Of a DNA stretch of 64,000 bases, positions 13,239 to 58,362 are shown one piece after another. Under the pieces are notes generated by a model. It was not told the origin of the DNA, did not search any database, and saw only the letters and a list, made by a program, of their open reading frames with translations. The DNA lies in the NCBI RefSeq assembly GCF_018350175.1, contig NC_058368.1:682001-746000 (forward strand), written 5' to 3'. Position 1 is the first letter of the stretch; each line of letters opens with the position of its first letter. Made by a program: the position numbers and the translations under genes. The stretch comes from Felis catus. Taxonomy: Eukaryota.

Positions 13239-13317
13239 CTTCTCTTTGTGTATGTCCATTGAGATGCCATATGTGATTGAATTCATTTCTAGTGATACAC
13301 ATGAACTGAGACAAAAG
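13239..13317 (+). CDS. PARP4: PARP4 exon, 79 nt, phase 2-0
   Basis: ttttttggtag|CTTCTC...CAAAAG|gttagt; (S)FSLCMSIEMPYVIEFISSDTHELRQK. Confidence 0.95.
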
Positions 13318-13359: not shown

Positions 13360-15590
13360 GCATAGTTTTATTTTATCAAGGCAATACACACACATGGCTT
13401 AAAAAGTTACGTAATCATAATGCTAACAACGGCTTCTACAACAAGCTGCAGTCGGTTCTACCCTGCCGCTTCCAGACCCGCCTCCAGAGGCAGTGAACCA
13501 CTTTAAATACTTTACCTCCTTTCTGCTGGCCTCCAAAGTTGTGAATGATACATTTTTTTACTGCTTGTTCTTGACTCATCTATTTCAAAAGTTTTTTTTT
13601 GGCTTCTTACTGTGGTAGATGCAAATCTGGTTATCTTGCCTCTCCGCTACCCTCAGTCGCACACAGATTAAAACTCTTCGGAATACTGTTTTTCACTGCT
13701 GAATGCTCCCAGTAATTTGGAAATGTTTTCCCCCTGAGACCCTCTTCCTTTTCCGTGTCTCCACTGCAGCCCAGCCTGGTTACTGCAGGGCAGGGGTTGT
13801 CCCAGGGCCTTTCTTTTCTGATTCTCCTTTGCAGGACTTTTGTTCCTTATCCTCGTTCTTGTGTTACTCCTTCCATTGGCAGAGCACAGCCTCCATTCAC
13901 TTCCTGAGTAGGTGGAGTGTGTGGGCAGCAGTGCCTGAAGCTGTCCTCATCCCATGTGTTAATGCTGATCATTTGTTGAGGTTTTCATCTCGGGTTGAAA
14001 ATCACCCTGTGAAAATACTGAAAACGTTATCTTCTAGCTTCTAGCGTTACTTCTGAGAACTTAAATGCTATTCTTATCCCCCATTCCTTGTATGTAATCT
14101 GTTTTGTTTTGTTTTAACCTCTACAAGAATTTCAGATCTTCTTTTTATCCCTGGTATTCTGAAATTTTATAAGAAGGTGATACTCATTCATTGTATGCAA
14201 CTCGTAGCCTTTAGTGCTGGAAATTTTTGTTATATTTTTAAAAATAAGTTGTTCCTCTCTCCTGTACCTTTTGCATTGCCTTTCAATCAGGTGTCCCCTG
14301 GATGGAGCCTCTTGTTTTCTTTCTTTTTTTCTCCTGTTGACCATTGTATTGTTTTCTTGTTCTACTTTCTGAGTGATTTTTTCAATTTTAAATTCCAACC
14401 ATTCTACTGAAATTTTTATTTTAGTTCTAATATTTTTAATTTGCAAGAGCTCTTTTCTGCTCTGTAAATATTACTCTTGGGGGGCACCTGGGTGGCTCAG
14501 TCGGTTCAGTGTCCAACTCTTGATTTTGGCTCAGGTCGTGATTCCAGGGTCATGAGATCGAATCCCACATCAGGGCTGCACTGAGCATGGAGCCTGCTTG
14601 GGATTCTCTCTCTCCCTCTGCCTCTCCCTCATGTGTTCTCTCTCTAAAATATGAATGAATGAATGAATGAATGAATGAATGTTCCTTTTTTATAGCATCT
14701 TTGTGTGTTTCATGAATGCAGTACCTTCCTTTCTTGTCTCTCTGAAAATACATTTTTTCTTCTCTTCCCTGTGTTGTGTCCTTTTTCTTTGAGCTCTCTT
14801 TTCCTTCTGGCTTTTGCTTTTTGTTCTCTATATTTTGTGTTAGAGGCTTTTCCTTAAATGCCTGGGTGACCCCTCTGTGCTCGTGTCTAACTGAGACACA
14901 CACAAAGCTAGCTAGATGCTGTGAGGTGGGGCGAGTGGATGGGAGGCCCTGCACGGGAGGCCCTGGCAACTGGCTGGCTGTTTGATGGTGAGTCTCATGG
15001 TAGTGTTTTAGCCTTTATGCAGTTATTCAGAACTCCTCTAGGGTATTCATAAAGTATGACTGGGGAGAGGGACTGAGGGGCCCACACTTAGGATGCCACC
15101 TTGCACGTCCTTCCCCAGTTTACGTCACTGCACACCTATGCTTCGTTATACCTAGGATTCCTGTAGATACTCTTTGCTTGAATTTCTCTAAGTAATGAAT
15201 CTTCAGTTTCCTTAATTGAGAGAACAGGGCTCTAGCTATCGGTGCTAGCTGCTTGGCTACTTAGAGCAGGGAGGAGGTCTGCACCAAGGCAACTGAGTGC
15301 ATAGTCTCCTCGCTAGTACTGTTGTTTTCTGCAGTACCTCCAAGGTGTGACCCTTCCTGAGTCGCTGCAGTCCTCCACCCAGATGGTAACTTCCTCCACT
15401 CTCTGTACACCTTCCACCACACCTCTGTCAGCTTTGTTGAGATCTCTCATCTGCGATCGTCTTCGTTCCTACTCTCCATGTCTTTAAGGGTTGATACCCT
15501 CTAATTGATTCCCTCTTATGGTAGGGGGTTTTAGGATTTTGGTAGAGAATGGAGATAAACACATGCATTTAGTCCATCCTGAGCAAGAAG
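13360..15590 (-). mobile_element. Ancient L1 (L1M-type) 5'/ORF1 remnants
   Basis: Minus-strand ORF 14132..14446 resembles decayed L1 ORF1 (...IKFQNTRDKKKI); T-rich plus strand; boundaries approximate. Confidence 0.5.
14479..14680 (+). mobile_element. CAN-SINE with (ATGA)n tail
   Basis: GGGGCACCTGGGTGGCTCAGTCGG head, CT-rich body, ATGAATGA tail. Confidence 0.9.
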
Positions 15591-15595
15591 CCCTC

Positions 15596-16075
15596 TGCAT
15601 CAGGTAGCTTTTGCTGTGAAACAAACAATCTCAAAACTTTATGGTTTAAAACAATAACATTTGTTATTTCTCACAGTTTTGTGAATTGGCTGGGCAGTTC
15701 TAATGGGCTGCACTGGCTTGGCTGGAACAAGATGGTCTAGAATGGTCTTATTCTAATACCTGGCTATTGGCCTGGTGTCATCTGGGGTGACGACCACGTG
15801 TCTCTCTTCATCAGGTTAGCTCAGCTTCATGCGTATGGTAGTGAGAGAGTTCTCAACAGCAACAGGAGAAGGTGAGACTCACTGCACAAACATTTTCCAA
15901 GCCTCTTGCATCACATCTGCCAATATCCCATTGACCAAAGCAAGCCACACTGGCCACCTTTGGATTCAAAGGCAGAAAAAGGCCACTTCCTGACAGGAAG
16001 AGCTGCAAAGTTGCATTGCAAAGGGGCCAGCACACAGGAAAGGAAAACCCTTGAGGCCATTTCACAGTCTATCAC
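15596..16075. mobile_element. MaLR LTR (MLT1-like)
   Basis: TG...TTTGCTGTGAAACAAAC...TTAAAACAATAACATTTGTTATTTCTCACAG...CCATTGACCAAAGCAAGCCAC...TCTATCACA. Confidence 0.7.
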
Positions 16076-16161
16076 ATTGCCTTTATTGTTTAAAGCATAT
16101 AATTCACATTTCCAAAAGTGATTCTGTTTATGAAAACGTAATTTAAGAATTAGTCATAATT

Positions 16162-19129
16162 GGGGATGCAAGCTGGTGCAGCCACTCTGGAAAACAGTAT
16201 GGAGATTCCTCAAAAAAACTAAAAATAGAACTACCCTACAACCTAGCAATTGCACTACTAGGCATTTATCCACAGGGTACAGGTGTGCTGTTTCTAAGGG
16301 ACACATGCATCCCCATGTTTATAGCAGCACTATCAACAGTAGCCAAAGTATGGAAAGAGCCCAAATGTCCATCGATGGATGAATAGATAAAGAAGATGTG
16401 GTATATATATACATTGGAGTATTACTCAGCAATCAAAAAGAATGAAATCTTGCCATTTGCAACTACATGGATGGAACTGGAGGGTATTAGGCTAAGTGAA
16501 ATTAGTCCGTCAGAGACAGACAAAAATCATATGACTTTACTCATATGAGGACTTTAAGAGACAAAACAGATGAACGTAAGGGAAGGGAAACAAAAATAAT
16601 ATAAACACAGGGAGGGGGACAAAACAGAAGAGACTCATAAATATGGAGAACAAACTGAGGGTATTGGAGGGGTTTTGGGAAGGGGGATGGGCTACATGGG
16701 TAAGGGACACTAAGGAATCTACTCCTGAAATCATTGTTGCAGTATATGCTAACCAATTTGGATGTAAATTTTAAAAAAATAAAAAAATAAAACAAGTTAA
16801 AATTAAAAAAAAAAACAATGTACAGGGATATATGGGAAAAAACCAACATATTTAAGTATTTGTTTATTTATGTGAAAGGACCCAAAGATTATTATAAGCT
16901 TGAAAGATGGAGTAATTTGCATATATGATATGTAATTTTAAAATTTTTATTGGTGGATGAGAGTGGTTGAACAAAGTAAAGCCTCCATTTAGTTATTCAT
17001 TATTTCCATTCAGTATTTCATATGTGTTGCTTGCTACATAATATTTTAACATTTGTCTGAATTTGAAACAATATGGCACATTAATTTATCAGAATACTGT
17101 ATAATAAATACTAAATAATAAATTTCTTTTGTTAGATGCATATTATTCAGGATCACTTATTATGTTTATATAATTTTGATATGAAGTAGAAGACTGTATT
17201 ACAACTTGGAGTTTGTTTTAGAAGATGATAGAAAATTCTGTGGAACCATAATTTTAGAGTTGCGCTTAGGGCTAACAGCCAATGCTTAAATAGTTTAATA
17301 ATTTATTATTAGGGTTTTACTATATGTAGTTGTTATGCTTCTAGACATTTTTTCTGCAGTATTTCTGGGATAATTTGCACTAAAATTAGTTTTTTAAAAG
17401 GCCATAAGGGGCGCCTGGGTGGCGCAGTCGGTTAAGCGTCCGACTTCAGCCAGGTCACAATCTCGCGGTCCGTGAGTTCGAGCCCCGCATTGGGCTCTGG
17501 GCTGATGGCCCGGAGCCTGGAGCCTGTTTCCGATTCTGTGTCTCCCTCTCTCTCTGCCTCTCCCCCGTTCATGCTCTGTCTCTCTCTGTCCCAAAAATAA
17601 ATAAACGTTGAAAAAAAAAAGGCCATAAAATATGAGAGTTAACTATAAATCCAAGGAATCACTCAATTTTAATTTGCTTCACCAACGCCTGGTACATATC
17701 AAGAAATTCATCTTTCCTACAGAATAAAGGATGTCTGTATATATGGGACATAATTTTTTTTTTTTTTTTTTACTAAACACCTTGTCATATTAAATGAGGT
17801 AGTTTGTAGGGCATACTAAGGAGTTCAGAACACATGGGAAAGCTATTTTCTATCTCTTAATAAAGTGATTAAAAAGCATTCGTTGGACCAATGGAAGTCA
17901 CATAGTGACAACCTAAATAATTATAAATATTAATCTTCATGCAAGTCGTATCATCTTCCAAATTTAGCAAGTAAGAGAAGGCATTCCTAATAAGAGATGT
18001 AGCACACACATTTTTTTCATAGCAAAACATATGGAATCCACCAACAAAATACTAAAAGATAACATTAATTTTAAAAAATTAATCTGTCAGAATCACAATC
18101 TATGTCATATTTCTGATCCTCTACAAATTATAGTCATCATTTTGTCACTCTATTTCAGGTACAATTAATTCCTCAATCTGGTTCCATAAGCTTCAAAAAC
18201 ATCCTTGGTTCTGTTATGGACAAATTTTCTTCTATTCATACCTTCCTTCTTCTCTTTCAATTTATCTTCCACTTGACAAATTTATTATAGCATCTTGAAT
18301 CATCTACCTATAGTTCTCTATATAGTCTCAGTGCTATATGAGAAGTCAAATGACTTAATTTTCTCATTGATAAGGATTGTCATTTGGAGGCAAATTGTAT
18401 CTCCTTTCCCCCTTTTGTTAATCAAACACTTTATTCTACATGTATTCATGTTAAAGAATAACAGAAAATCTTTAAGGAAAAGAAAACCCACAATATAACA
18501 TCATAAAAGCCAATCGATTTATGTAGAAGAAATTTAGGTAACAGAAACCCAGATTCTTAGAATGGAAAAAAAGTTTTTTGCCTTAATGCAGAAAGTCCCT
18601 GTATAATATCCCAGAAACATGGTTAATTGTCTTTGCTTAAACAATTCTAACAGTGGGGAATGCACTACTTTATTAAGGAGTTCATTTTATTGATGGACAG
18701 CTTTAAAATTTGGAAGTTCCACCTGATACTTGTTCATTTTTTCATAGAGAGCATGAGCAAAGTGCACATCTAATGTAGCTGACCTCATCTAGGCTCTGAA
18801 CAGGGGCATGTTCCCTGCACTTGTGTGTTTTGTATTCCAGATGATTTGACAGCAAATAGCCGTGCAAGAATATCTACATAGATTCTTTTATTTAAAATTT
18901 TATGAAGATAATAAAATACTTTCTTGATAACTGAACTCATACTCTGAAATGAGAACCTGAAAACACAGTGAATTACAAATCTCTTTTTCCTTCTCACTAA
19001 GGATAGGATGAAACTCTTCACCCATGTGCCTGAAATAACTCCAGTCTAATCTGGATCCTGCATGATGTGCCCTCTATAGGTTTTGCCCTATTCAACATGA
19101 CCTACAAATACATTTGCTTTAAAAAAAAA
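16162..19129 (+). mobile_element. 5'-truncated carnivore L1 (16162-~16815) with ~2.3-kb 3' transduction and second poly(A)
   Basis: L1 ORF2 end and 3'UTR, A-tail at ~16773-16815, unique DNA, A-run 19121-19131; TSD AAGAATTAGTCATAATT (16145-16161) / AAGAAGTAGTCATAATT (19130-19146). Confidence 0.85.
17408..17616 (+). mobile_element. Young feline SINE (SINEC_Fc-type)
   Basis: GGGGCGCCTGGGTGGCGCAGTCGGTTAAGCGTCCGACTTCAGCC..., CpGs retained, TSD AAAAGGCCATAA (17396-17407 / 17617-17628). Confidence 0.95.
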
Positions 19130-19157
19130 AAGAAGTAGTCATAATTATAAGATTTCT

Positions 19158-21848
19158 TTTTTTTGTTTGTTTGTTTTTTAAAGTATACTTGCTTTATTGT
19201 TTTTCTTAATGATATATATCATTAAAAAATTCAAAGACTCAAAATCTGAATTCCCAACAATAATCATTACCCATATTCTCTGAATGTATTCCATCTACAT
19301 CTTCCAATATACAGAATGAGAGGGGGCAAGTTAGATGGCTAGTCAGAAAGAAATAACTTTTGAAAATGGAATGATACAATATATTTTCATATAAAGATAG
19401 AAAACTGATTAAATTTTACTTCAATGTAACTGAAATAAAAGGAACAGAAGTAAAGCTGAAGGAATTGATCAACTTGAATGCTTCTTCGTAAAAAGAAAAG
19501 CTTACCTCTAAATTTAAAATGGTCATGACCGCAGGTGCTTAGTATGTTTTTGACTGTTTCAGCTATGCAAAGTATCCACTGACTCCCTGCTAGAAAGGAA
19601 GAGGAAAGTATCACCTTACAAAACCCACACTTGCTTAATTTTTATATTTAAATAGATTCGGTACTCATCACTAGGTATTTTTGATTTACCACGTTTTTCT
19701 ATTTATTGAGCTATTCTGATTAACTTCTTATTCTGAAATCTCTTGATTTCATTGTCAGTTTGTATGTCTGTGTGTTAAAAACAAAACTTACATGAGCTAA
19801 GTTGACTAATGCCTTGCATAGTGTCGGTGTTTCTGTTGATTACAGATGAAGCAACACTTGGCTGAATATACAATTTTTGATTTATACTTCCACATTAGAA
19901 CTGTGCAGTCATTTCTCAACTATCTCCTAATGTTAATTATGTGCAAGTCATATGTATCTTCATCAAAAAGGATTAGAAATATTTTCTTTTTTTTATATGA
20001 AATTTATTGACAAATTGGTTTCCATACAACACCCAGTGCTCATCCCAAAAGGTGCCCTCCTCAATACCCATCACCCACCCTCTCCTCCCTCCCACCCCCC
20101 ATCAACCCTCAGTTTGTTCTCAGTTTTTAACAGTCTCTTATGCTTTGGCTCTCTCCCACTCTAACCTCTTTTTTTTTTTTTTCCTTCCCCTCCCCCATGG
20201 GTTCCTGTTAAGTTTCTCAGGATCCACATAAGAGTGAAACCATATGGTATCTGTCTTTCTCTGTATGGCTTATTTCACTTAGCATCACACTCTCCAGTTC
20301 CATCCACGTTGCTACAAAAGGCCATATTTCATTTTTTTCTCATTGCCACGTAGTATTCCATTGTGTATATAAACCACAATTTCTTTATCCATTCATCAGT
20401 TGATGGACATTTAGGCTCTTTCCATAATTTGGCTATTGTTGAGAGTGCTGCTATGAACATTGGGGTACAAGTGGCCCTATGCATCAGTACTCCTGTATCC
20501 CTTGGATAAATTCCTAGCAGTGCTATTGCTGGGTCATAGGGTAGGTCTATTTTTAATTTTCTGAGAAACCTCCACACTGCTTTCCAGAGCGGCTGCACCA
20601 ATTTGCATTCCCACCAACAGTGCAAGAGGGTTCCCGTTTCTCCACATCCTCTCCAGCATCTATAGTCTCCTGATTTTTTCATTTTGGCCACTCTGACTGG
20701 CGTGAGGTGATACCTGAGTGTGGTTTTGATTTGTATTTCCCTGATAAGGAGCGACGCTGAACATCTTTTCATGTGCCTGTTGGCCATCCGGATGTCTTCT
20801 TTAGAGAAGTGTCTATTCATGTTTTCTGCCCATTTCTTCACTGGGTTATTTGTTTTTCGGGTGTGGAGTTTGGTGAGCTCTTTATAGATTTTGGATACTA
20901 GCCCTTTGTCTGATATGTCATTTGCGAATATCTTTTCCCATTCCGTTGGTTGCCTTTTAGTTTTGTTGGTTGTTTCCTTTGCTGTGCAGAAGCTTTTTAT
21001 CTTCATAAGGTCCCAGTAATTCACTTTTGCTTTTAATTCCCTTGCCTTTGGGGATGTGTCGAGTAAGAGATTGCTACGGCTGAGGTCAGAGAGGTCTTTT
21101 CCTGCTTTCTCCTCTAAGGTTTTGATGGTGTCCTGTCTCACATTTAGGTCCTTTATCCATTTTGAGTTTATTTTTGTGAATGGTGTGAGAAAGTGGGCTA
21201 GTTTCAACCTTGTACATGTTGCTGTCCAGTTCTCCCAGCACCATTTGTTAAAGAGGCTGTCTTTTTTCCATTGGATGTTTTTTCCTGCTTTGTCAAAGAT
21301 GAGTTGGCCATACGTTTGTGGGTCTAGTTCTGGGGTTTCTATTCTATTCCATTGGTCTATGTGTCTGTTTTTGTGCCAATACCATGCTGTCTTGATGATG
21401 ACAGCTTTGTAGTAGAGGCTAAAGTCTGGGATTGTGATGCCTCCTGCTTTGGTCTTCTTCTTCAAAATTCCTTTGGCTATTCGGGGCCTTTTGTGGTTCC
21501 ATATGAATTTTAGGATTGCTTGTTCTAGTTTCGAGAAGAATGCTGGTGCAATTTTGATTGGGATTGCATTGAATGTGTAGATAGCTTTGGGTAGTATTGA
21601 CATTTTGACAATATTTATTTTTCCAATCCATGAGCAGGGAATGTCTTTGCATTTCTTTAAATCTTCTTCAATTTCCTTCATAAGCTTTCTATAGTTTTCA
21701 GCATACAGATCCTTTACATCTTTGGTTAGATTTATTCCTAGGTATTTTATGCTTCTTGGTGCAATTGTGAATGGGATCAGTTTCTTTATTTGTCTTTCTG
21801 TTGCTTCATTGTTAGTGTATAAGAATGCAACTGATTTCTGTACATTGA
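19158..21848 (-). mobile_element. 5'-truncated young L1 (L1_Fc-like, ~19982-21848) with ~0.8-kb 3' transduction
   Basis: ORF2 C-terminal fragment open for 450 codons (20329..21681); perfect 17-bp TSD ATAATTATAAGATTTCT (19141-19157 / 21849-21865); T-tail 19158-19179; minus-strand AATAAA at 19198-19193. Confidence 0.92.
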
Positions 21849-22222
21849 ATAATTATAAGATTTCTATTGAAGTTTCTATTTATACTATTCTAAGTTATGA
21901 TTATCTATTATACTTTCTGCTATATCCAGATAGTTCTAACTGAATACATAGACCTATAACCTTAGGATCCAGGACTTGAGACTGTCTTAAACGTATCTAA
22001 ATTTGACTGTGTACATCAACCTTAGCATTTCAGGAGGGTAACTGATATAATAATGGTCACACTTCTCAAAGCATCATAATTTTAGAATTTATGACTACAA
22101 TGTTGATTGCTAATGGTGTTATATAAATTATGCAAGGGTTTGCTACTTGAAAGGCAACTTCAAATTGATACTATGGTATTATTCCATTATTTACTTTGTT
22201 GTCATTGTTGTTTGTTTTGTAG

Positions 22223-22360
22223 AGTACAGACTGCAAAGCTGTAATTAGCACCATGGACGGTAGCTCCTTAGACAGCAATGGATTCTCCCTTCACGTCGGT
22301 TTATCTGATGCACATCTCCCAAGAATGTGGGTCGAAAAACATCCAGAAAAAGAAAGTGAG
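22223..22360 (+). CDS. PARP4: PARP4 exon, 138 nt, phase 0-0
   Basis: ttgttttgtag|AGTACA...AGTGAG|gtatgg; STDCKAVISTMDGSSLDSNGFSLHVGLSDAHLPRMWVEKHPEKESE. Confidence 0.95.
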
Positions 22361-23850
22361 GTATGGTCCTTCTTACTTAAAAATGAGGGACACTATTAAA
22401 AAAATATTTCAAATACATTAATTAAATTTGGAATTTACTGATAGTCCTGGAAAACTAGCATTGCAAAATGAACTCTCACCATTCCAAGATTTTACAACTA
22501 AAAATACTTATGGGATCTGGCATGATAAACTTCTGAGGTTTCAACCAAGTTCCTCATGTGGCATGTTTCTCTATAATGACTTTATTTTTTACCTTAAACC
22601 CCACTGAAAACAAAAAATGCCTTCAGACATTACATTGTTAGTCTGTGTATTTTTATAGTTTTTAAATATTGATACTGTAAAAACAGATACAAAATTATTT
22701 ATGGCCATAAGACCATTTGTGTCCCTATGACAAAGAATCTCTTCTTATTAGAATAAAAAATCGAGAATGACATCAGCCAGATGGCCCAACAAGGTGTCCT
22801 TCACATGTATCCCCCCCGCCAACAACAATTTGGCATCTATCCATGGACAAAGTGCCATTTGGGAACTTTGGGATCTAGTTAGGGGATTTGGAAATGCCAA
22901 TACAGCTCAAAAGTGAGGAGAACTGTTTTGAAAAGGCAGGCTTGCACCCAGGAGGCTGACTTGCTGACCATGGTCCTGGCTGCAGGCACCATCTGTGCCC
23001 CCAGATATCCTGAAAGTACCCTATACTTGGCTCCAGCCTCCTCACAGTCACAATCTTCAAGCAAGCCTGTGAGTCCAGGGACACTTCCATCTACAACCTT
23101 GAAGATTCTGAAAAGGCTGTCAGAAGATTCTGAAAATTCTCAGCTCTAACCCCCTCCTAGCTGCAGTCCACAAGCAGTCCTGTTGGCATAGGACCGATAC
23201 TCATGTCTGCACCTCAGGAGATCCAGAAAGGGCCTTATACTCTGCTTCAGCCCTCCAGCTATGGAGGGTCGGTCCACCCAGAGACCCCATGGAACATATC
23301 TATCTTCACCTTCAGAGCCAAGTCTGCAGATCCCAGTCATGGCTGTGGAACCTGAAACAGTTGTGGTGCTTGGTTCCAGCCCCTCTGAACTGTAGTCCAG
23401 GGCCAATCTTGTCCACTAGAGACTCATCCAGCAACTAGGCAGGAGTATTTCCAGGGACCTAGTGGAAGCTACACCCATCCATGTACCTGATGGTACATGG
23501 TCTAATACCATGTACCATAGTAGGTCTGATAGGTCTGATGACTGAGAACCTATGGACTCTGAAGTGGATTCTCATCCCAGGTGACTCTACTGAACAGGTT
23601 CTGAGGCAGACCCACCCACCCAGGGACCAGACGTGCTCAACCCTCTGGTAACAAGAATATCAGCTGCAGACCACACCATAGACTTAGGAACAGCCTCAAA
23701 ATTGACTCCAATTCTGCACAATTGTGATTCCAGAGGTAAACCCACCAACCAGGGAACCAACAGGAAAAGGTCTTTACCTGCCAAACTAGTGCAAGGTTAT
23801 GCACAGATACCAGTGCAAGGTTATGTAGATCATGAAGAATCAGGCAAACA

Positions 23851-24070: not shown

Positions 24071-25255
24071 AAGAATTAGGCAAACATGACACTGCCAAAG
24101 GAAACTAACAAAGCTCCTGTAATTGACCCCAAAGAAATGTAGATCTATGATTTGCTGACAACAAACTCAAAATAATCACCTTAAGAAAACTCCATACAGT
24201 ACAAGGGAAGACAGATAAACAACTAAACGAAATCAGGGAAACAACATGTGAACAAAATGAGAAGTTTAATAGAAATAGAAACCATAAAAAAGAACCAAAC
24301 AGAAAGTCTGGAGCTTAAGAATATAATGACAGGAGGATCCTGGGAAGATGGCGGCTTAGGAGGACACTGGGCTCACCGCACGTCCTGCTGATCACTTAGA
24401 TTCCACCTACACCTGCCTAAATAACCCAGAAAACCGCCAGAAGACTAGCAAAATGGAGTCTCCGGAGCCAAGCTCAGACGAGAGGCCTACGGAAGAGGGT
24501 AGGAAGGGCAGAGAGGCGGTGCACGCTCCACGGACTGGCAGGAGGGAGCCAGGGCAGAGGGGCGGCAGCCAGCCAAGCAGAGCCCCCGAGTCTGGCTTGC
24601 AAAAGGGAAGGGGCCAGACGGAGTGTGTTCCGACAGCAAGTGGGACTTGACATCTGGAAGGTTATAAGCTAACAGCTCTGCTCGGAGAACGGGAGGTCTG
24701 GAGGACAACGGGAGGGAGAGTTGTTGAGCCCTGGACGACAGAGCTCAGCTTGGCGGGGAACAAAGGCGCTTGCCAGCGCCATGTCCCTCGCCCATCCCCC
24801 AGCCAAAATCCCAAAGGGAACCAGTTCCTGCCAGGGAACTTGCTTGCACCACGCAAACACCCAACGCTGTGCTTCTGCTGCGGATCCATCCCTCCCGTGG
24901 GTCTGACTCCCTCCTGGTGCCGCAGGGCACCTCCCGAAGCGGATCTCCGAAGGAAAAGCGAGCTGAGCCTGCCCCTCCCACCCCTGTGCACCTTCCCGAT
25001 CCAGCTAATACGCCAGATGCCCAGCACCACAAGCCTGGCAGTGTGCAAGTAGCCCAGACGGGCCACACCACCCCACAGTGAATCCCACCCCTAGGAGAGG
25101 GGAAGAGAAGGCACACACCAGTCTGACTGTGGCCCCAGCGGTGGGCTGGGGGCAGACATCAGGTCTGACTGTGGCCCCGCCCACCAATGCAAGTTATTCA
25201 AGACAGTACAGAGGAAGTGCCCCGCAGTCCCGCACCACTTCAGGCACTATCCAAA

Positions 25256-26149
25256 ATGATGAAACGGAAGAATTCCCCTCAGAAAAACGTCCAGGAAATA
25301 ACAACAGCTAACGAACTGATCAAAAACGATTTAAACAATATAACAGAAAGTGAATTTAGAATAATAGTCATAAAATTAATCGCTGGGCTTAAAAACAGTA
25401 TAAAGGACAGCAGAGAATCTCTTGCTATAGAGATCAAAGGACTAAAGAACAGCCAGGAGGAGCTAAAAGATGCTATCAATGAGCTGCAAAATAAAATGGA
25501 GACAACTACGGCTCGGATTGAAGAGGCAGAGGAGAGAATAGGTGAACTAGAAGATAAAATTATGGAAAAAGAAGAAGCTGAGAAAAAGAGAGATAAAAAA
25601 AATCCAGGAGTATGAGGGGAAAATTAGAGAACTAAGTGATGCACTAAAGAGAAATAATTTGCGCATAATTGGTCTTCCAGAGGAGGAAGAGAGAGGGAAA
25701 GGTGCTGAAGGTGTACTTGAAGAAATAATAGCTGAGAACTTCCCGCATCTGGGTAAGGAAAAAGGCATTGAAATCCAAGAGGCACAGAGAACTCCCTTCA
25801 GACATAACTTGAATCGATCTTTTGCACGACGTACCATAGTGAAACTGGCAAAATACAAGGATAAAGAGAAAATTCTGAAAGCAGCTAGATAAACATGCTG
25901 TAACATATAAAGGGAGACCTATAAGACTTGTGACCCATCTCTCTACTGAAACTTGGCAGGCCAGAAAGGAATGGCAGGAAATCTTCAATGTGATGAACAA
26001 AAAAAAATATGCAGCCGAGAATCCTTTATCCAGCAAGTCTGTCATTTAGAATATAAGGAGAGATAAAGGTCTTCCCAAACAAACAAAAACTGAAGGAATT
26101 TGTCACCACTAAATCAGCCCTACAAGAGATCCTAAGGGGGATCCTGTGA
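25256..26149 (+). pseudogene. L1 ORF1p, disrupted
   Basis: MMKRKNSPQKNVQE... coiled coil; frameshift in the A-run near 25595; RIIGLPEEEE...KEKILKAAR followed by a premature stop at 25892. Confidence 0.88.
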
Positions 26150-26199
26150 GACAAAGTACCAGAGACATTGCTACAAGCATGAAACCTACGGACATCACA

Positions 26200-29100
26200 A
26201 TGACTCTAAACCCATATCTTTCTATAATAACACTGAATGTAAATGGACTAAATGTGCCAACCAAAAGACATAGGGTATCAGAATAGATAAAAAAAACAAG
26301 ACCCATCTATTTTCTGTCTACAAGAGACTCATTTTAGACCTGAGGACACCTTCAGATTGAGAGTGAGGGGATGGAGAGCTATTTATCATGCTACTGGAAG
26401 TCAAAAGAAAGCTGGAGGAGCCATACTTATATCAGACAAACTAGACTTTAAATTAAAGGCTGTAACAAGAGATGAAGAAGGGCATTATATAATAATTACA
26501 GGGTCTATCCATCAGGAAGAGCTAACAATTATAAATGTCTATGCGCCGAATACAGGAGCCCCCAAATACATAAAACAATTACAAACATAAGCAACCTTAT
26601 GGATAAGAATGTGGTAATTGCAGGGGACTTTAACACTCCACTTACAGAAATGGATAGATCATCTAGACACATGGTCAATAAAGAAACAAGGTCCCTGAAT
26701 GATACATTGAATCAGATGGACTTGACAGATAGATTTAGAACTCTACATCCCAAAGCAACAGAATATACTTTCTTCTCGCGTGCACATGGAACAGTCTCCA
26801 AGATCACATACTGGGTCACAAAACAGCCCTTCATAAGTATACAAGAATTGAAATCATACCATGCATACTTTCAGACCACAATGCTATGAAGCTTGAAATC
26901 AACCACAGGAAAAAGTCTGGAAAACCTCCAAAAGCACGGAGGTTAAAGAACACCCTACTACAGAATGAATGGGTCAATCAGGCAATCAGAGAAGAAATTT
27001 AAAAATATATGGAAACAAATGAAAATGAAAATACAACAATCCATACGCTTTGGGATGCGGCAAAGGCAGTCCTGAGAGGAAAATACATTGCAATCCAGGC
27101 CTATCTCAAGAAACAAGAAAAATCCCAAATACAAAATCTAACAGCACACCTAAAGGAAATAGAAGCAGAACAGCAAAGACAGCCTAAATCCAGCAGAAGA
27201 AGAGAAATAATAAAGATCAGAGCAGAAATAAACAATATAGAATCTAAAACAACTGTAGAGCAGATCAATGAAACCAAGAGTTGGTTTTTTGAAACAATAA
27301 ACAAAATTGATAAACCTCTAGCCAGGCTTCTCAAAAAGAAAAGGGAGATGACCCAAATAGATAAAATCATGAATGAAAAGGGAATTATTACAACCAATCC
27401 CTCAGAGATACAAGCAATTATCAGGGAATATTATGAAAAATTATATGCCAACAAACTGGACAACCTGGAAGAAATGGACAAATTCCTAAACACCCACACG
27501 CTTCCAAAACTCAATCAGGAGGAAAGAGAAAGCTTGAACAGACCCATAACCAGCAAAGAAATTGAATCGGTCATCAAAAATCTTCCAACAAATAAGATTC
27601 CGGGACCAGATGGCTTCCCAGGGGAGTTCTACCAGAAGTTTAAAGCAGAGATAATACCTATCCTTCTCAAGCTATTCCAAAAAATAGAAAGGGAGGGAAA
27701 ACTTCCAGACTCATTCTATGAAGCCAGTATTACTTTGATTCCTAAACCAGACAGAGACCCAGTAAAAAAAGAGAACTACAGGCCAATATCCCTGATGAAT
27801 ATGGATGCAAAAATTCTCAACAAGATACTATCAACTCGAATTCAACAGCATATAAAAAGAATTATTCACCATGATCAAGTGGGATTCCTTCCTGGGATGC
27901 AGGGCTGGTTCAACATTCGCAAATCAATCAATGTGATACATCACATTAATAAAAGAAACGATAAGAACCATATGATCCTGTTAATGCAGAAAAGGCCTTT
28001 GACAAAATTCAGCAATCTTTCTTAATAAAACCCCTTGAGAAAGTCAGGATAGAAGGAACATACTTAAAGATCATAAAAGCCATTTATGAAAAGCCCACAG
28101 CTAACATCATCCTCAATGGGGAAAAACTGAGAGCTTTTTCCCTGAGATCAGGAACACGACAGGGATGTCCACTCTCACCGCTGTTGTTTAACATAGTGTT
28201 GGAAGTTCTAGCATCAGCAATCAGACAACAAAAGGAAATCAAAGGCATCAAAATTGGCAAAGATGAAGTTAAGATTTCACTTTTTGCAGATGACATGATA
28301 TTATACATGGAAAATCTGATAGACTCCACCAGAAGTCTGCTAGAACTGATACATGAATTTAACAAAGTTGTAGGATACAAAATCAATGTACAGAAATCAG
28401 TTGCATTCTCATACACTAATAATGAAGCAACAGAAAGACAAATAAAGAAACTGATCCCATTCACAATTGCAGCAAGAAGCATAAAATACCTAGGAATAAA
28501 TCTAACCAAAGATTTAAAAGATCTGTATGCTGAAAACTGTAGAAAGCTTATGAAGGAAATTGAAGAAGATATAAAGCAATGGAAAAACATTCCATGCTCA
28601 TGGATTGGAAGAATAAATATTGTCAAAATGCCAATACTACCCAAAGCTATCTACACATTCAATGCAATCCCAATCAAAATTGCACCAGCATTCTTCTTGA
28701 AACTAGAACAAGCAATCCTAAAATTCATATGGAACCACAAAAGGCCCCGAATAGCCAAAGGAATTTTGAAGAAGAAGACCAAAGCAGGAGGCATCACAAT
28801 CCCAGACTTTAGCCTCTACTACAAAGCTGTTGTCATCAAGACAGCATGGTATTGGCACAAAAACAGACACATAGACCACTGGAATAGAAAAGAAACCCTA
28901 GAACTAGACCCACAAAAGTATGGCCAACTCATCTTTGACAAAGCAGGAAAGAACATCCAATGGAAAAAAGACAGTCTCTTTAATAAATGGTGCTGGGAGA
29001 ACTGGACAGCAACATGTAGAAGATTGAAACTAGCCCACTTTCTCACACCATTCACAAAAATAAACTCAAAATGGATAAAGGACCTGAATGTGAGACAGGA

Positions 29101-30013
29101 AACCATCAAAACCCTAGAGGAGAAAGCAGGAAAAGACCTCTCTGACCCCAGCCGTAGCAATTTCTTACTTGACACATCCCCAAAGGCAAGGGAATTAAAA
29201 GCAAAAATGAACTACTGGGACCTTATGAAAATAAAAAGCTTCTGCACAGCAAAGGAAACAACCAACAAAACTAAAAGGCAACCAATGGAATGGGAAAAGA
29301 TATTTGCAAATGACATATCGGACAAAGGGCTAGTATCCAAAATCTATGAAGAGCTCACCAAACTCCACACCTGAAAAACAAATAACCCAGTGAAGAAGTG
29401 GGCAGAAAACATGAATAGACACTTCTCTAAAGAAGACATCCGGATGGCCAACAGGCACATGAAAAGATGCTCAGCGTCGCTCCTCATCAGGGAAATACAA
29501 ATCAAAACCACACTCAGGTATCACCTCATGCCAGTCAGAGTGGCCAAAATGAAAAAATCAGGAGACTATAGATGCTGGAGAGGATGTGGAGAAACGGGAA
29601 CCCTCTTGCACTGTTGGTGGGAATGCAAATTGGTGCAGCCACTCTGGAAAGCAGTGTGGAGGTTTCTCAGAAAATTAAAAGTAGACCTACCCTATGACCC
29701 AGCAATAGCACTGCTAGGAATTAACCCAAGGGATACAGGAGTACTGATGCATAGGGCCACTTGTACCCCAATGTTTATAGCAGCACTCTCAACAATAGCC
29801 AAATTATGGAAAGAGCCTAAGTGTCCATCAACTGATGAATGGATAAAGAAATTGTGGTTTATATACACAATGGAGTACTACATGGCAATGAGAAAGAACG
29901 AAATAGGACCCTTTGTAGCAACGTGGATGGAACTGGAGAGTGTGATGCTAAGTGAAATAAGCCATACAGAGAAAGACAGATACCATATGGTTTCACTCTT
30001 ATGTGGATCCTGA
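26200..30013 (+). pseudogene. L1 ORF2p (endonuclease/reverse transcriptase), disrupted
   Basis: Split over ORFs 26357, 26599, 27009, 28184 and 29390; contains [38 protein letters not shown]; early TAG near 26284 and several frameshifts. Confidence 0.92.
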
Positions 30014-30238
30014 GAAACTTAACAGAAACCCATGGAGGAGGGGAAGGAAAAAAAAAAAAAGAGGTTAGAGTGGGAGAGAGCCAAAGCATAAGAGACTGTT
30101 AAAAACTGAGAACAAACTGAGGGTTGATGGGGGGTGGAAGGGAGGGGAGGGTGGGTGATGGGTATTGAGGAGGGCACCTTTTGGGATGAGCACTGGGTGT
30201 TGTATGGAAGCCAATTTGACAATAAACTTCATATATTG

Positions 30239-30255
30239 AAAAAGAAAGAAAGAAT

Positions 30256-51615: not shown

Positions 51616-52278
51616 AAGAGTCACATGCTCTACACCTGAGCCAGCCAGGTGCTGCCAGTCTAATTATTTCCAAAATATCTCAAACTTGTAATTCATATAA
51701 AACTAGATTTTATTTACATGCAACTTTTTAGGAATGACTCTTTAACATTCAAATAATAGTAGTAACATAGCATCCTTAATTCCCTTTTGTTTTCCACGTT
51801 ATTCAAAGTCTAGTGTAAAAATATATTCATTTAGTTACTTTACAGCTTTTGAAATTTTTGTCAGTTTTCTCAGTTTCCTAATATTGCTGTAAAGCAGTAT
51901 AAAAGACTAGAATAATTTATTTCAAATTATCAGCTTATTTTAGGGCTAATTTACACATTATGATACTGCTATTATAAAATCTTGTACAAGACACTTCTTT
52001 GGTCCTCAGTTTCCTCTTGTATAAAATGAGAGATATTGAAATTCCAAGATGCTAAGAACAAAGAGAAACTAAGATATTTGATGTGTTTATTGTTGCTGTT
52101 CTCTCCAGATCTCAGACTCTGTATCTACAAAACAAGGACATTGTACTTAAATTATCTTGAATATCTCCTCTTTTCAATGCTCTGGGATAAGCAGCTGCTT
52201 GTCTGCTTGGAAGTCAACTACTAGGAAGGATGTTCATTTTATTCTGTGTTTTCCCTTACATTTTTCCCTTTCGGGCAG

Positions 52279-53283
52279 CCTCTTTCAGCATTCTCTACAC
52301 GGAATGAAGAGCTGCGACATCATTTGACTAACAGAAAACTTGGATCACCTAAGCTGGAAGTTTTTGAAGATTTTGAAAAGGGTTGCTTCAGCTCCCCACT
52401 ATCAGAAAAATCTTTAACACTCAATTTCGCATGTGAAGATGTGGAAATGCCATCGGATATAAGTCAGATGGATTCATTTCAGCAAACAGGAACTGAACCA
52501 TTATATAGAAGTGACCCTTTCCTAAAACAGGGTGCTTGCAGTATTTCTGCTGCCCATAGGTTAGCCTGTTTGGAAGTTGAGCCCGTAATTGGTTCTCGTT
52601 TCCACTGTCCTTCCCACTTACATCGTTCAAAGGCTTGTCTTGCTTCTCCTGCTAGTTCTGAACAGTCTGGTCCATCTGAGAATGACCAAGACCTTCAAAC
52701 TGACAGTTGTAGTGATTCTTCCCTTGAGTCATCTGCCGCTTTCAGACTGTCTCTCCTGCCTTTGAGCTCCTTTGCTTGTGTTCCTTATTCAGGTGACTCA
52801 TATAACTTTGGACAGGTTGATCTACCTGACAGTTATCAAGGTCATAAGACTGACAATTGTGCTAGCAATTCTCTTGAGTTGGACTCTCCCCCACAGCCGA
52901 ATACTTTTTTCTCTCCTCCTAGAGTTCCTTCCTCTGGTCTACCCAGAGAGTTTGACTTTCATTACCCTTCTGGTTCTCCTCTTTATTTTCAAAATTCCTC
53001 AGTTCATTCGAGCACCGCTTACAAGCCACGGATAGATCTGTTTGCTAACACAGAATTGGAGGCTTCTTCAGCAAATGTTTGTGCCATAATTTCATCATCT
53101 ACTTCAAGTAATGGGCATTTTTCTGAAACAAAAAATGTTGAAACACCAAGATTTCAGAAACGTCGTTTGGCAAAATCTGTTCTAACAGGAAGTGCCTTTA
53201 CTGCAAGCTTTCAGGCACAAAAAGATGAACAAAGCTGGATGAATTTTGTGCCTTGGACCAAACTCTTCAGTCTACAAACTGAG
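52279..53283 (+). CDS. PARP4: PARP4 large Ser/Pro-rich (probably disordered) exon, 1005 nt / 335 aa, phase 0-0
   Basis: tttttccctttcgggcag|CCTCTT...ACTGAG|gtatta; lies inside ORF 52246..53322; ends VPWTKLFSLQTE in frame with the next exon DGFWKL. Confidence 0.92.
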
Positions 53284-53879
53284 GTATTAGTCTTATTTCT
53301 CCTTAAGTCTGTGGTTAATTAGCTTCATAGTTTAGAGCAGAGCTATTCAAAGTACCTGGTCGTTTATCAGTACAATAGTGAGGTAAGTGACTTGTGGCAG
53401 AATGTAAATCAATACACTGCTTCTTCCATTGAGAAAAATTTTCCAAAAAAAAGTCAACAATAAATACAGCGTGCTTGATAATGGTATTTATCTATCTAGT
53501 TTTAACTGTTAGGCTAGAATATCATGCAAGTGAATGTTAATATTCCTCAGTTGAAAGTTAATCATCCCTGAACGGGTCATGGGGTAAGACCTTGATTTCC
53601 TAGGTTCTAGAACAGGTGAATTGCAATTATGTACATTTCCCACTTTGACGTAGAGGACGAGAGCTGTAAGTATACTCTAATTGTTTTCACATATGGTCTT
53701 AGGAATATCACTCAACATGTAAGACTGTGTTAGAGCTTATCATTCCATTTGTGAAGCTAATAAACACTAAGTGAACTTAGTTCCTGCGCTGGTACTAAGA
53801 CCCAGCCTCATATCTGTAATTATTTGTTTTAATGTAAAGTAGTTTAGTAAAGTGGAAACTCAACTTGATTTAGTGTAAG

Positions 53880-56508: not shown

Positions 56509-57413
56509 TTGGGACCTCATCAAAATAAAATCAGATAAAGGGTTAGTATCCAAAATCTACAAAGAACTTATCAAACTCAACACCCAAAAAACAAATAATC
56601 TAGTGAAGAAATGGGCAAAAGACATGAACAGACACTTCTCCAAACAAGGCATGCAGATGGCAAACCAACACATGAAAAAATGCTCAACATCACTCATCAT
56701 CAGGGAAATACAAATCGAAACCACAATGAGATACCACCTCACCCTTCTCAGAATGGCTAACATGGACAACTCAGGCAACAACATATATTGGCGAGGATGC
56801 AGAGAAAGAGGATCTCTTTTGCACTGTTGGTGATGATGCAAGCTGGTGCAGCCACTCTGGAAAACAGGATGGAGGTTCCTCAAAAAACTAAAAATAGAAC
56901 TACCCTACAACCTAGCAATTGCACTACTAGGCATTTATCCACAGGATACAGGTGTGCTGTTTCAAAGGGACACATGCACCCCCATGTTTATAGCAGCACT
57001 ATCAACAATAGCCAAAGTATGGAAAGAGCCCAAATGTCCATCAATGGATGAATGGATAAAGAAGATGTGGTATATATATATACAATGGAGTATTACTCGG
57101 CAATCAAAAAGAATGAAATCTTGTCATTTGCAACTACGTGGAAGGAACTGGAGGGTATTACACTAAGTGAAATTAGTCCATCAGAGAAAGACAAAAATTA
57201 TATGACTTCACTCATGTGAGGACTTTAAGAGACAAAACAGATGAACGTAAGGGAAGGGAAACAAAAATAATATAAACACAGGGAGGGGGACAAAACAGAA
57301 GAGACTCGTAAATATGGAGAACAAACTGAGGGTTATTGGAGGGGTTGTGGGAGAGAGGATGGGCTAAATGGGTAAGGGGCATTAAGGAATTTAGTAAGGA
57401 AGTAAATTAAGGA
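56509..57413 (+). mobile_element. Carnivore L1 fragment truncated at both ends, no poly(A)
   Basis: ORF2 C-terminus and 3'UTR ending ...GGGGCATTAAGGAAT; TSD ATTTAGTAAGCTCA at 56495-56508 / 57414-57427. Confidence 0.87.
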
Positions 57414-57914
57414 ATTTAGTAAGCTCAGATAAAGTATTTTAAAACCACTCTTTTAAGGCCTGGAATGCAATAAAAAAAAAAAAAAAAGGCAGAAACTAGA
57501 AGGATCAAAATCCCTGAAAAAAGGAAGAAAATGAGGTGAGTTCTACATTTACTCAACTATTCACCCAAAGGTACTTCTCAGTTCATGAGGCACATGAGAG
57601 GTTAGAACTGAAATGGAAAGTCTTAATGGGATAATGACATAGGAGTTAGAGTTCAAGGCTGCCAGAGTGGCCGGAAAGTAAGGGTGAAACTCCTAAAAAG
57701 GAAGGAGCCACAGAGCCCAGAGCTCTGAAATCTGCATACAGATTCCCTCAGATTGTTGGCTCTCCCCTAACCTGTACATACACGTGACTTCAAGGAATCC
57801 AGAAAAAAAGCAACAGCTGGAGAGAAAAAGAGCAGAGATTCCAGCTGCTGCCAGGTGTTGGGGAGACAGAGTTTGGTGTTTGAATTATACCAAATTAGAA
57901 TTGACAAACATCTT

Positions 57915-58362
57915 GGGGTGCCTGCGTGGCTCAGTCGGTTAAGCATCCCACTTTGGCTCAGGTCATGATCTTGTGGTTCCTGAGTTCAAGCCTTGTGTTG
58001 GGCTCTGTGCTGACAGCTCAGAGCCTGGAGCCTGCTTCAGATTCTGTGTGTGTCTCTCTCTGCCCCTCCCCGACTCGCGTGTGTGCGCTCTCTCTCAAAA
58101 ATAAATAGGGGCACCTGGGTGGCGCAGTCGGTTAAGCGTCCGACTTCAGCCAGGTCACGATCTCGCGGTCCGGGAGTTCGAGCCCCGCGTCAGGCTCTGG
58201 GCTGATGGCTCAGAGCCTGGAGCCTGTTTCCGATTCTGTGTCTCCCTCTCTCTCTGCCCCTCCCCCGTTCATGCTCTGTCTCTCTCTGTCCCAAAAATAA
58301 ATAAACGTTGAAAAAAAAATTTAAAAATAAACATTAAAAAAAATTTTTAACAACAAAAAAAT
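57915..58362 (+). mobile_element. SINE-in-SINE: young SINEC_Fc (58108-~58322) inserted in the A-tail of an older CAN-SINE
   Basis: Inner TSD AAAAATAAA(T/C)A at 58097-58107 / 58323-58333; outer flanks share AAACATCT. Confidence 0.88.

Follow-up and report, generated by a model that had tools for sequence, protein, structure and literature searches.

The question raised by this locus is how a block of about 5.7 kb came to lie in an intron of the PARP4 gene of the cat, where two fragments of long interspersed element 1 (L1) stand tail to tail around non-L1 DNA. The locus was analyzed in a window of 64,000 nt from Felis catus (NCBI RefSeq assembly GCF_018350175.1, contig NC_058368.1, positions 682,001 to 746,000 of the forward strand), and all coordinates below count from the first nucleotide of this window. 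With a probability of roughly 0.78, we consider that the block arose by two L1 endonuclease-dependent insertions, i.e., by target-primed reverse transcription (TPRT), at one site of the intron, and that each insertion brought in a putative partnered 3′ transduction together with its L1 3′ end. The plus-strand insertion is referred to here as unit 1 and the minus-strand insertion as unit 2.

Each unit is enclosed by its own pair of 17-nt direct repeats. Unit 1 is bracketed by repeat 1 (family D14), with a left copy at 16145-16161 and a right copy at 19130-19146 that agree at 16 of 17 positions (94%), the single mismatch being at 19135; the block between them spans 16162-19129. Unit 2 is bracketed by repeat 2 (family D10), with copies at 19141-19157 and 21849-21865 that are identical over all 17 nt, and the enclosed block spans 19158-21848. 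The initial annotation had proposed both pairs as target-site duplications, and an independent repeat search and direct reading of the sequence returned the same coordinates and strings, including the perfect second pair. In the repeat search of the window, family D10 extended to 19141-19160 and 21849-21868, with the first 17 nt identical. The two central copies overlap at 19141-19146, again as proposed, and the 6 nt of this overlap are present three times, since they also occur at 16156-16161 and 21849-21854. In both units, the repeat copies are placed exactly, one at the 5′ truncation point of the L1 and the other directly after the terminal A tail.

Were 16816-19120 and 19180-19981, the two non-L1 stretches, ancestral intron, the elements around them would be two plain L1 fragments and the 17-nt repeats would be coincidental. 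In the 64-kb window, searched on both strands with up to 2 mismatches, each 17-mer was found only at its two claimed places, i.e., with one partner, compared to shuffle expectations of 0.07 and 0.06 for repeats 1 and 2, respectively. The 17 nt immediately preceding each L1 start were also compared with the entire sequence downstream of that L1, where the claimed duplications were the only matches with at most 1 mismatch; 0 of 300 shuffles produced a match for either unit. Each partner sits exactly at a tail end, and a duplication around the L1 alone was sought and not found, evident by best scores of 8 and 7 compared to 14 and 17 for the claimed pairs. These results make an ancestral origin of the two stretches very improbable. 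On the evidence available, both repeats are target-site duplications of the whole units, that is, of L1 plus extra DNA, and not of the L1 parts alone. One further match to repeat 1 (13/17) at 19968-19984, beside an internal A tract of unit 2, was rejected as a partner; its position would pair it with the wrong end, and it was judged to be a chance similarity among AT-rich L1 target sites.

Comparison with the L1 protein ORF2p and nucleotide alignments bore out that the two elements are L1 3′ ends in opposite orientation, tail to tail, each truncated at its 5′ end. The L1 part of unit 1 (16162-16772, plus strand) holds the last ~135 codons of ORF2, in a broken frame, followed by the 3′ untranslated region. 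Its frame at 16147-16386 matches residues 1162-1216 of human ORF2p (E = 5.5e-13), and the frame is broken near its start, where two frames overlap. This L1 part is 94.3% identical to another copy in the window at 56835-57390. The L1 part of unit 2 (19995-21848, minus strand) is longer, at 1.85 kb, and is 96.4 to 96.6% identical to a longer L1 at 28383-30247; because that copy continues further 5′, position 21848 is fixed as the 5′ truncation point of unit 2. The long open ORF2 frame attributed to the minus-strand unit was recovered at 20329-21852 on that strand, where 507 codons match residues 733-1236 of the 1,275 residues of human ORF2p (E = 1.6e-233), and it is lost ~39 codons before the expected end of ORF2. 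Between the two units, the ORF2 translations are 77% identical over 57 residues. The Pfam search found no families in these two L1 frames, which are C-terminal parts of ORF2, though the ORF2p comparison matched both.

How far the two L1 parts differ bears directly on the number of events. Over 601 aligned nt, they are separated by a Kimura two-parameter (K2P) distance of 0.32; they therefore belong to different subfamilies and do not result from duplication, inversion or twin priming of a single RNA. With the two duplication pairs and the triplicated 6 nt, this agrees with the proposal of two separate L1 events at one 28-bp site. Because a second staggered cut can triplicate the shared 6 nt only in DNA that already carries the first duplication, we infer that the two insertions came one after the other and not in a single event. 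A single concerted event would require either that both strands of one staggered break served as primers for two L1 particles or that twin priming took place, unless the arrangement were an assembly artefact from reads joined at L1 repeats. The tail-to-tail geometry is superficially like that of inverted chimeric insertions, as far as these are described in the available part of one report (PMC11702581), and simultaneous L1 events are reportedly discussed in a preprint (10.1101/2024.08.27.596794). However, on mechanistic grounds, priming on both strands of one break would be expected to put the truncated 5′ ends in the center and a single long duplication outside. Here, it is the tails that are central, with host target DNA between them, and each unit has its own duplication with the shared 6 nt triplicated; the different subfamilies of the two L1 parts (K2P of 0.32) argue in the same direction. 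Nor would a misassembly make matching duplications at four junctions. We thus find a concerted event or an artefact scarcely credible. A twin-priming inversion specifically was rejected on the K2P of 0.32 between the arms and the two duplication pairs.

The order of these two sequential insertions cannot be read from the anatomy, because either order gives the same product. The initial annotation had held the minus-strand event to be the younger one, and three measures lean toward this view: the repeat copies are identical at 17/17 positions in unit 2 versus 16/17 in unit 1, the K2P to the nearest copy in the window is 0.035 (over 1,852 nt) versus 0.055 (over 553 nt), and the frame of unit 2 is open for 507 codons versus a broken frame in unit 1. 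As the numbers are small and the structure itself gives no order, these figures, read from the sequence, weakly suggest that unit 2 is the younger. They would be compatible with insertions some millions of years old.

We then considered the DNA that separates each L1 part from its terminal tail. In unit 1, the L1 3′ end is followed on the plus strand by an internal A-rich tract of 43 nt (16773-16815), reported by Tandem Repeats Finder (TRF) in rows 16773-16815 and 16772-16819 and read as the tail of the source element itself. Beyond it lies non-L1 stretch 1 (16816-19120, 2,305 nt), a putative 3′ transduction that is single copy in the window except for a short interspersed element (SINE): in the self-comparison of the window, 16816-17395 and 17629-19129 matched only themselves. 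The SINE, on the plus strand at 17408-17616, is flanked by a perfect 12-nt duplication of its own (17396-17407 and 17617-17628, family D4), so that with its duplication it occupies 17396-17628, and it has 16 further matching stretches in the window, the best at 95.8%. Near the end of stretch 1, the hexamer AATACA was read from the sequence at 19107-19112, 8 nt before the terminal A run; this hexamer is used as a variant poly(A) signal. The terminal run (19121-19129) consists of 9 A residues, or 11 with the first two A residues of the repeat, and abuts the right copy of repeat 1. Stretch 1 also contains a perfect run of 18 T residues (T18) at 17754-17771, beside which no signal hexamer was noticed and around which a script search found no flanking duplication of at least 8 nt; this run could be the tail of an unrecognized minus-strand retrocopy or a microsatellite.

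Unit 2 has the same layout on the minus strand. An internal A-rich tract of 13 nt (19982-19994) lies at its L1 3′ end, the alignment to the longer L1 copy ending at 19983, and is followed by non-L1 stretch 2 (19180-19981, 802 nt), likewise a putative 3′ transduction and single copy in the window. A canonical AATAAA at 19193-19198 precedes by 13 nt the terminal A-rich tail of 22 nt (19158-19179, T rich on the plus strand; TRF 19158-19176), which abuts the left copy of repeat 2. In both units, then, the poly(A)-signal hexamer is followed by an A tail abutting the repeat, in keeping with the proposal that the duplications enclose L1, extra DNA and tail together. The two stretches add up to 3,107 nt (2,305 + 802), consistent with the earlier estimate of ~3.1 kb of non-L1 DNA within an insertion of ~5.7 kb.

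Both units show the hallmarks of TPRT, namely, L1 sequence, a poly(A) tail on the sense strand, and 17-nt duplications, a length that falls within the range of the class (~7 to 20 bp). Both also show the layout of a transduction, with non-L1 DNA between the unit's own A tract and its terminal tail and duplications that enclose everything. The terminal poly(A) signal would be expected 10 to 30 nt before the tail; unit 2 has AATAAA at 13 nt, and unit 1 has only the variant AATACA at 8 nt. The L1 endonuclease prefers TTTT/AA. The putative first-strand nick motifs are TCTT/AAAT in unit 1, a good fit, and TTCT/ATTG in unit 2, a looser one, both with four pyrimidines followed by a purine, as judged from direct reading of the sequence. 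Altogether, the extra DNA in each unit is most likely a partnered 3′ transduction.

Several observations weigh against this conclusion. The nick motif of unit 2, TTCT/ATTG, departs from the ideal consensus. Stretch 1 is long, at 2,305 nt, and still measures ~2.07 kb once the SINE with its flanking duplication is subtracted. Leaving the tail of the SINE aside, this stretch includes 5 AATAAA and 2 ATTAAA hexamers, none of which can have ended a read-through RNA, and it ends at a noncanonical hexamer with an A run of only 9 to 11 nt. The transduction is the best fit to the anatomy of the window, in which neither a source locus nor the empty site is seen. Finally, two transduction-carrying insertions at one site are improbable beforehand, as they would make up roughly 1 to 6% of pairs if 11 to 25% of insertions carry a transduction; part of the appeal of the case therefore comes from its having been picked out.

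Some of these features would suit insertions made by the L1 machinery in which one or both templates were other than read-through RNA, either a host transcript (intronic, lncRNA or UTR) with an old L1 3′ fragment copied in trans or a template-switch chimera, in which the reverse transcriptase would have moved from a cellular RNA onto an L1 RNA tail. Since the 5′ truncation lies inside the L1, nothing shows a full-length source or a start at the L1 promoter, and stretch 1 is long with many unused signal hexamers, as in an intron or a long noncoding transcript. Chimeric insertions of two reverse-transcribed RNAs are described in the part of the above-mentioned report that is available (PMC11702581). 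On the other hand, in both units the A tract stands exactly at the end of the L1 and unique DNA follows, which is the standard arrangement of a genomic L1 with its flank. Unit 2, with 507 open ORF2 codons and 96.6% identity to a near full-length copy, fits a coding-competent source. The strong cis preference of L1 proteins, which favor their own encoding RNA, also speaks against copying in trans. We consider such templates unlikely and favor read-through from the source L1s.

The content of the extra DNA was also searched. No Pfam families were detected in 15 frames from both non-L1 stretches and 12 frames from the flanks, and Rfam and ARAGORN gave no matches over 15400-22600; with no Pfam, Rfam or tRNA match, there is therefore no gene or RNA content that identifies the origin of the extra DNA. 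Exact-string scans with stretch 2 and the left flank in metagenome contigs, and with stretch 1 in prokaryote genome contigs, were empty in collections that are unlikely to contain cat DNA. Word shares in 24 sequencing runs from 7 organisms ranged from 0.36 to 0.64, and as ~38% of the query is L1 or SINE, with L1 words dominating the shares, these values are uninformative either way.

A long L1 at 25169-30247 on the plus strand, which includes the copy aligned to unit 2, lies in the next PARP4 intron and belongs to the same young subfamily as unit 2 (K2P of 0.035). It retains pieces of ORF1 (Transposase_22, 25551-25889) and of the endonuclease (26476-26886), its frames being in several pieces, and a (GAAA)n array follows it from about 30250. 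This element was rejected as the source of unit 2, since the (GAAA)n array, and not stretch 2, comes after it.

The placement of the block within PARP4, as the initial annotation had it, was established from the protein. A 365-residue frame at 52225-53319 corresponds to a large PARP4 exon. Against the Felis catus PARP4 entry, it shows 100% identity along 77% of its length, and against the entries from Panthera onca and Prionailurus 95 to 96%. By local tblastn, the cat PARP4 protein yielded 17 exon pieces, all on the plus strand, two of which flank the double insertion: the upstream piece at 13249-13317 (residues 722-744 of the Felis catus entry, 100% identity) and the downstream piece at 22229-22360 (residues 747-790, 100% identity). 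The intron between them is ~8.9 kb long, 5.7 kb of which is the double insertion. Relative to PARP4, unit 1 is in sense and unit 2 in antisense orientation. The PARP4 exons on both sides are intact and read through, the nearest one being 364 nt from the right repeat and hence from the right end of the insertion. Farther downstream, the large exon (52276-53283) has its start at 52276 according to the Prionailurus and Panthera entries, but the UniProt entry of Felis catus places it at 52441; the discrepancy reflects either the use of another acceptor site or the way in which the entries were annotated.

Based on this anatomy, we propose that two TPRT events took place one after the other, on opposite strands, in a single 28-bp site of the PARP4 intron with an A+T content of 82%. 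In one event, the minus strand would have been nicked at 16144/16145, and the template would have been a plus-oriented RNA in which the last ~0.6 kb of an L1 and its A-rich tract were followed by 2.3 kb from downstream of the element and by a poly(A) tail; a staggered second nick would have led to the duplication of 17 nt. In the other event, the nick would have fallen on the plus strand, where the second repeat ends on its right side, and the template would have been a minus-oriented RNA that carried the last 1.85 kb of an L1 of a younger subfamily, then the 13-nt A tract, a further 0.8 kb from downstream of the element, and a tail. Again, 17 nt would have been duplicated, and the two 17-nt targets would have had 6 nt in common; that both targets included these 6 nt accounts for their presence in three copies. 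For each source L1, transcription would have passed the element's own weak poly(A) signal and ended at a downstream one. The outcome would be an inert addition of 5.7 kb to the intron, ~3.1 kb of which is unrecognizable as repeat.

It is conceivable that the two events were coupled, in that the fresh poly(A)/poly(T) tract left by the first insertion, beside its duplicated AT-rich target, turned the opposite strand into a favored substrate of the L1 endonuclease. We regard such coupling as quite improbable. If it did occur, tail-to-tail L1 pairs with overlapping duplications would form a recurrent, mechanistically coupled class and would not be chance neighbors, and felid phylogeny would gain as a by-product a three-state character (empty, one insertion, two insertions).

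Two sequential insertions with transductions would have several consequences for this locus. About 3.1 kb of PARP4 intron would pass as unique and probably duplicates two other loci by retro-copying; orthology maps, the mapping of reads and conservation scores can all be misled by such unrecognized intron DNA. The source loci, if found, would name two once-active felid L1 progenitors, and among Feliformia the presence or absence of the stacked insertions could be scored as a stepwise marker. The locus also offers a clean teaching example of one AT-rich site used twice, on opposite strands.

In the wider window, ~26% of the sequence matches another part of the window by self-BLAST. As retro-insertions are dense in the window, close pairs are expected by chance. 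Two SINE matches (57915-58107 and 58107-58319; region 57908-58331) meet at 58107 as head-to-tail copies, another close pair of retro-insertions. A C-rich minisatellite occupies 118-1156, its 23-nt unit being repeated ~44 times with a higher-order period of 396 nt. Long open frames run through it in several reading frames, none of which gave a Pfam match.

Compared to known systems, the locus adds a new and well-formed case to two established processes, namely, L1 3′ transduction and the repeated use of one integration site. Partnered L1 3′ transduction was reportedly described by Moran in 1999 and by Goodier and Pickeral in 2000. Both cat units resemble such insertions in the succession of L1 3′ end, A tract, unique DNA, poly(A) signal and tail within enclosing duplications. 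They differ in that stretch 1, at 2.3 kb, is longer than most of those reported and that the cat units are known from the insertion side alone. In the available part of one report, the L1 signal is bypassed in 3′ transduction, a poly(A) signal lies 10 to 30 bp upstream of the end, and ~25% of insertions carry such sequence; the median length of a whole partnered insertion is given there as 445 bp for somatic and 1,520 bp for germline cases (PMC13009371). For clones of normal colon, the accessible portion of another study counts 1% of somatic L1 insertions as partnered and 10% as orphan transductions, with a source L1 accepted up to 15 kb upstream (PMC10191854). In carnivores, canine L1s (LINE-1_Cf) also carry 3′ flanks, and 18 such sequences among dimorphic dog L1s are mentioned in what is available of that work (PMC7980453). 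The cat units share with them a carnivore L1 lineage with 3′ flanks in its insertions; here, however, old copies are found in a felid host.

Two further systems concern the pairing of the units. Twin priming, which produces the 5′ inversion of L1, likewise leaves L1 sequence in both orientations at one site, but it inverts part of one RNA within one duplication pair, whereas the cat site has two subfamilies, two pairs and host DNA between the tails. For the arrangement as a whole, we found no literature description of overlapping duplications or tail-to-tail L1 pairs in exactly this form, a weak negative given the incomplete coverage of the literature. Independent L1-mediated insertions have used the same integration site twice, as in three sites of NF1 and further cases in APC, F9 and BTK that are listed in the available part of one report (PMC3219598). 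As at these sites, two independent events in the cat intron hit the same short run of bases in an AT-rich site. The difference is that the NF1, APC, F9 and BTK insertions are separate disease alleles in different people, whereas in the cat a single chromosome carries both insertions, stacked on opposite strands, which makes their duplications overlap, with 6 nt triplicated.

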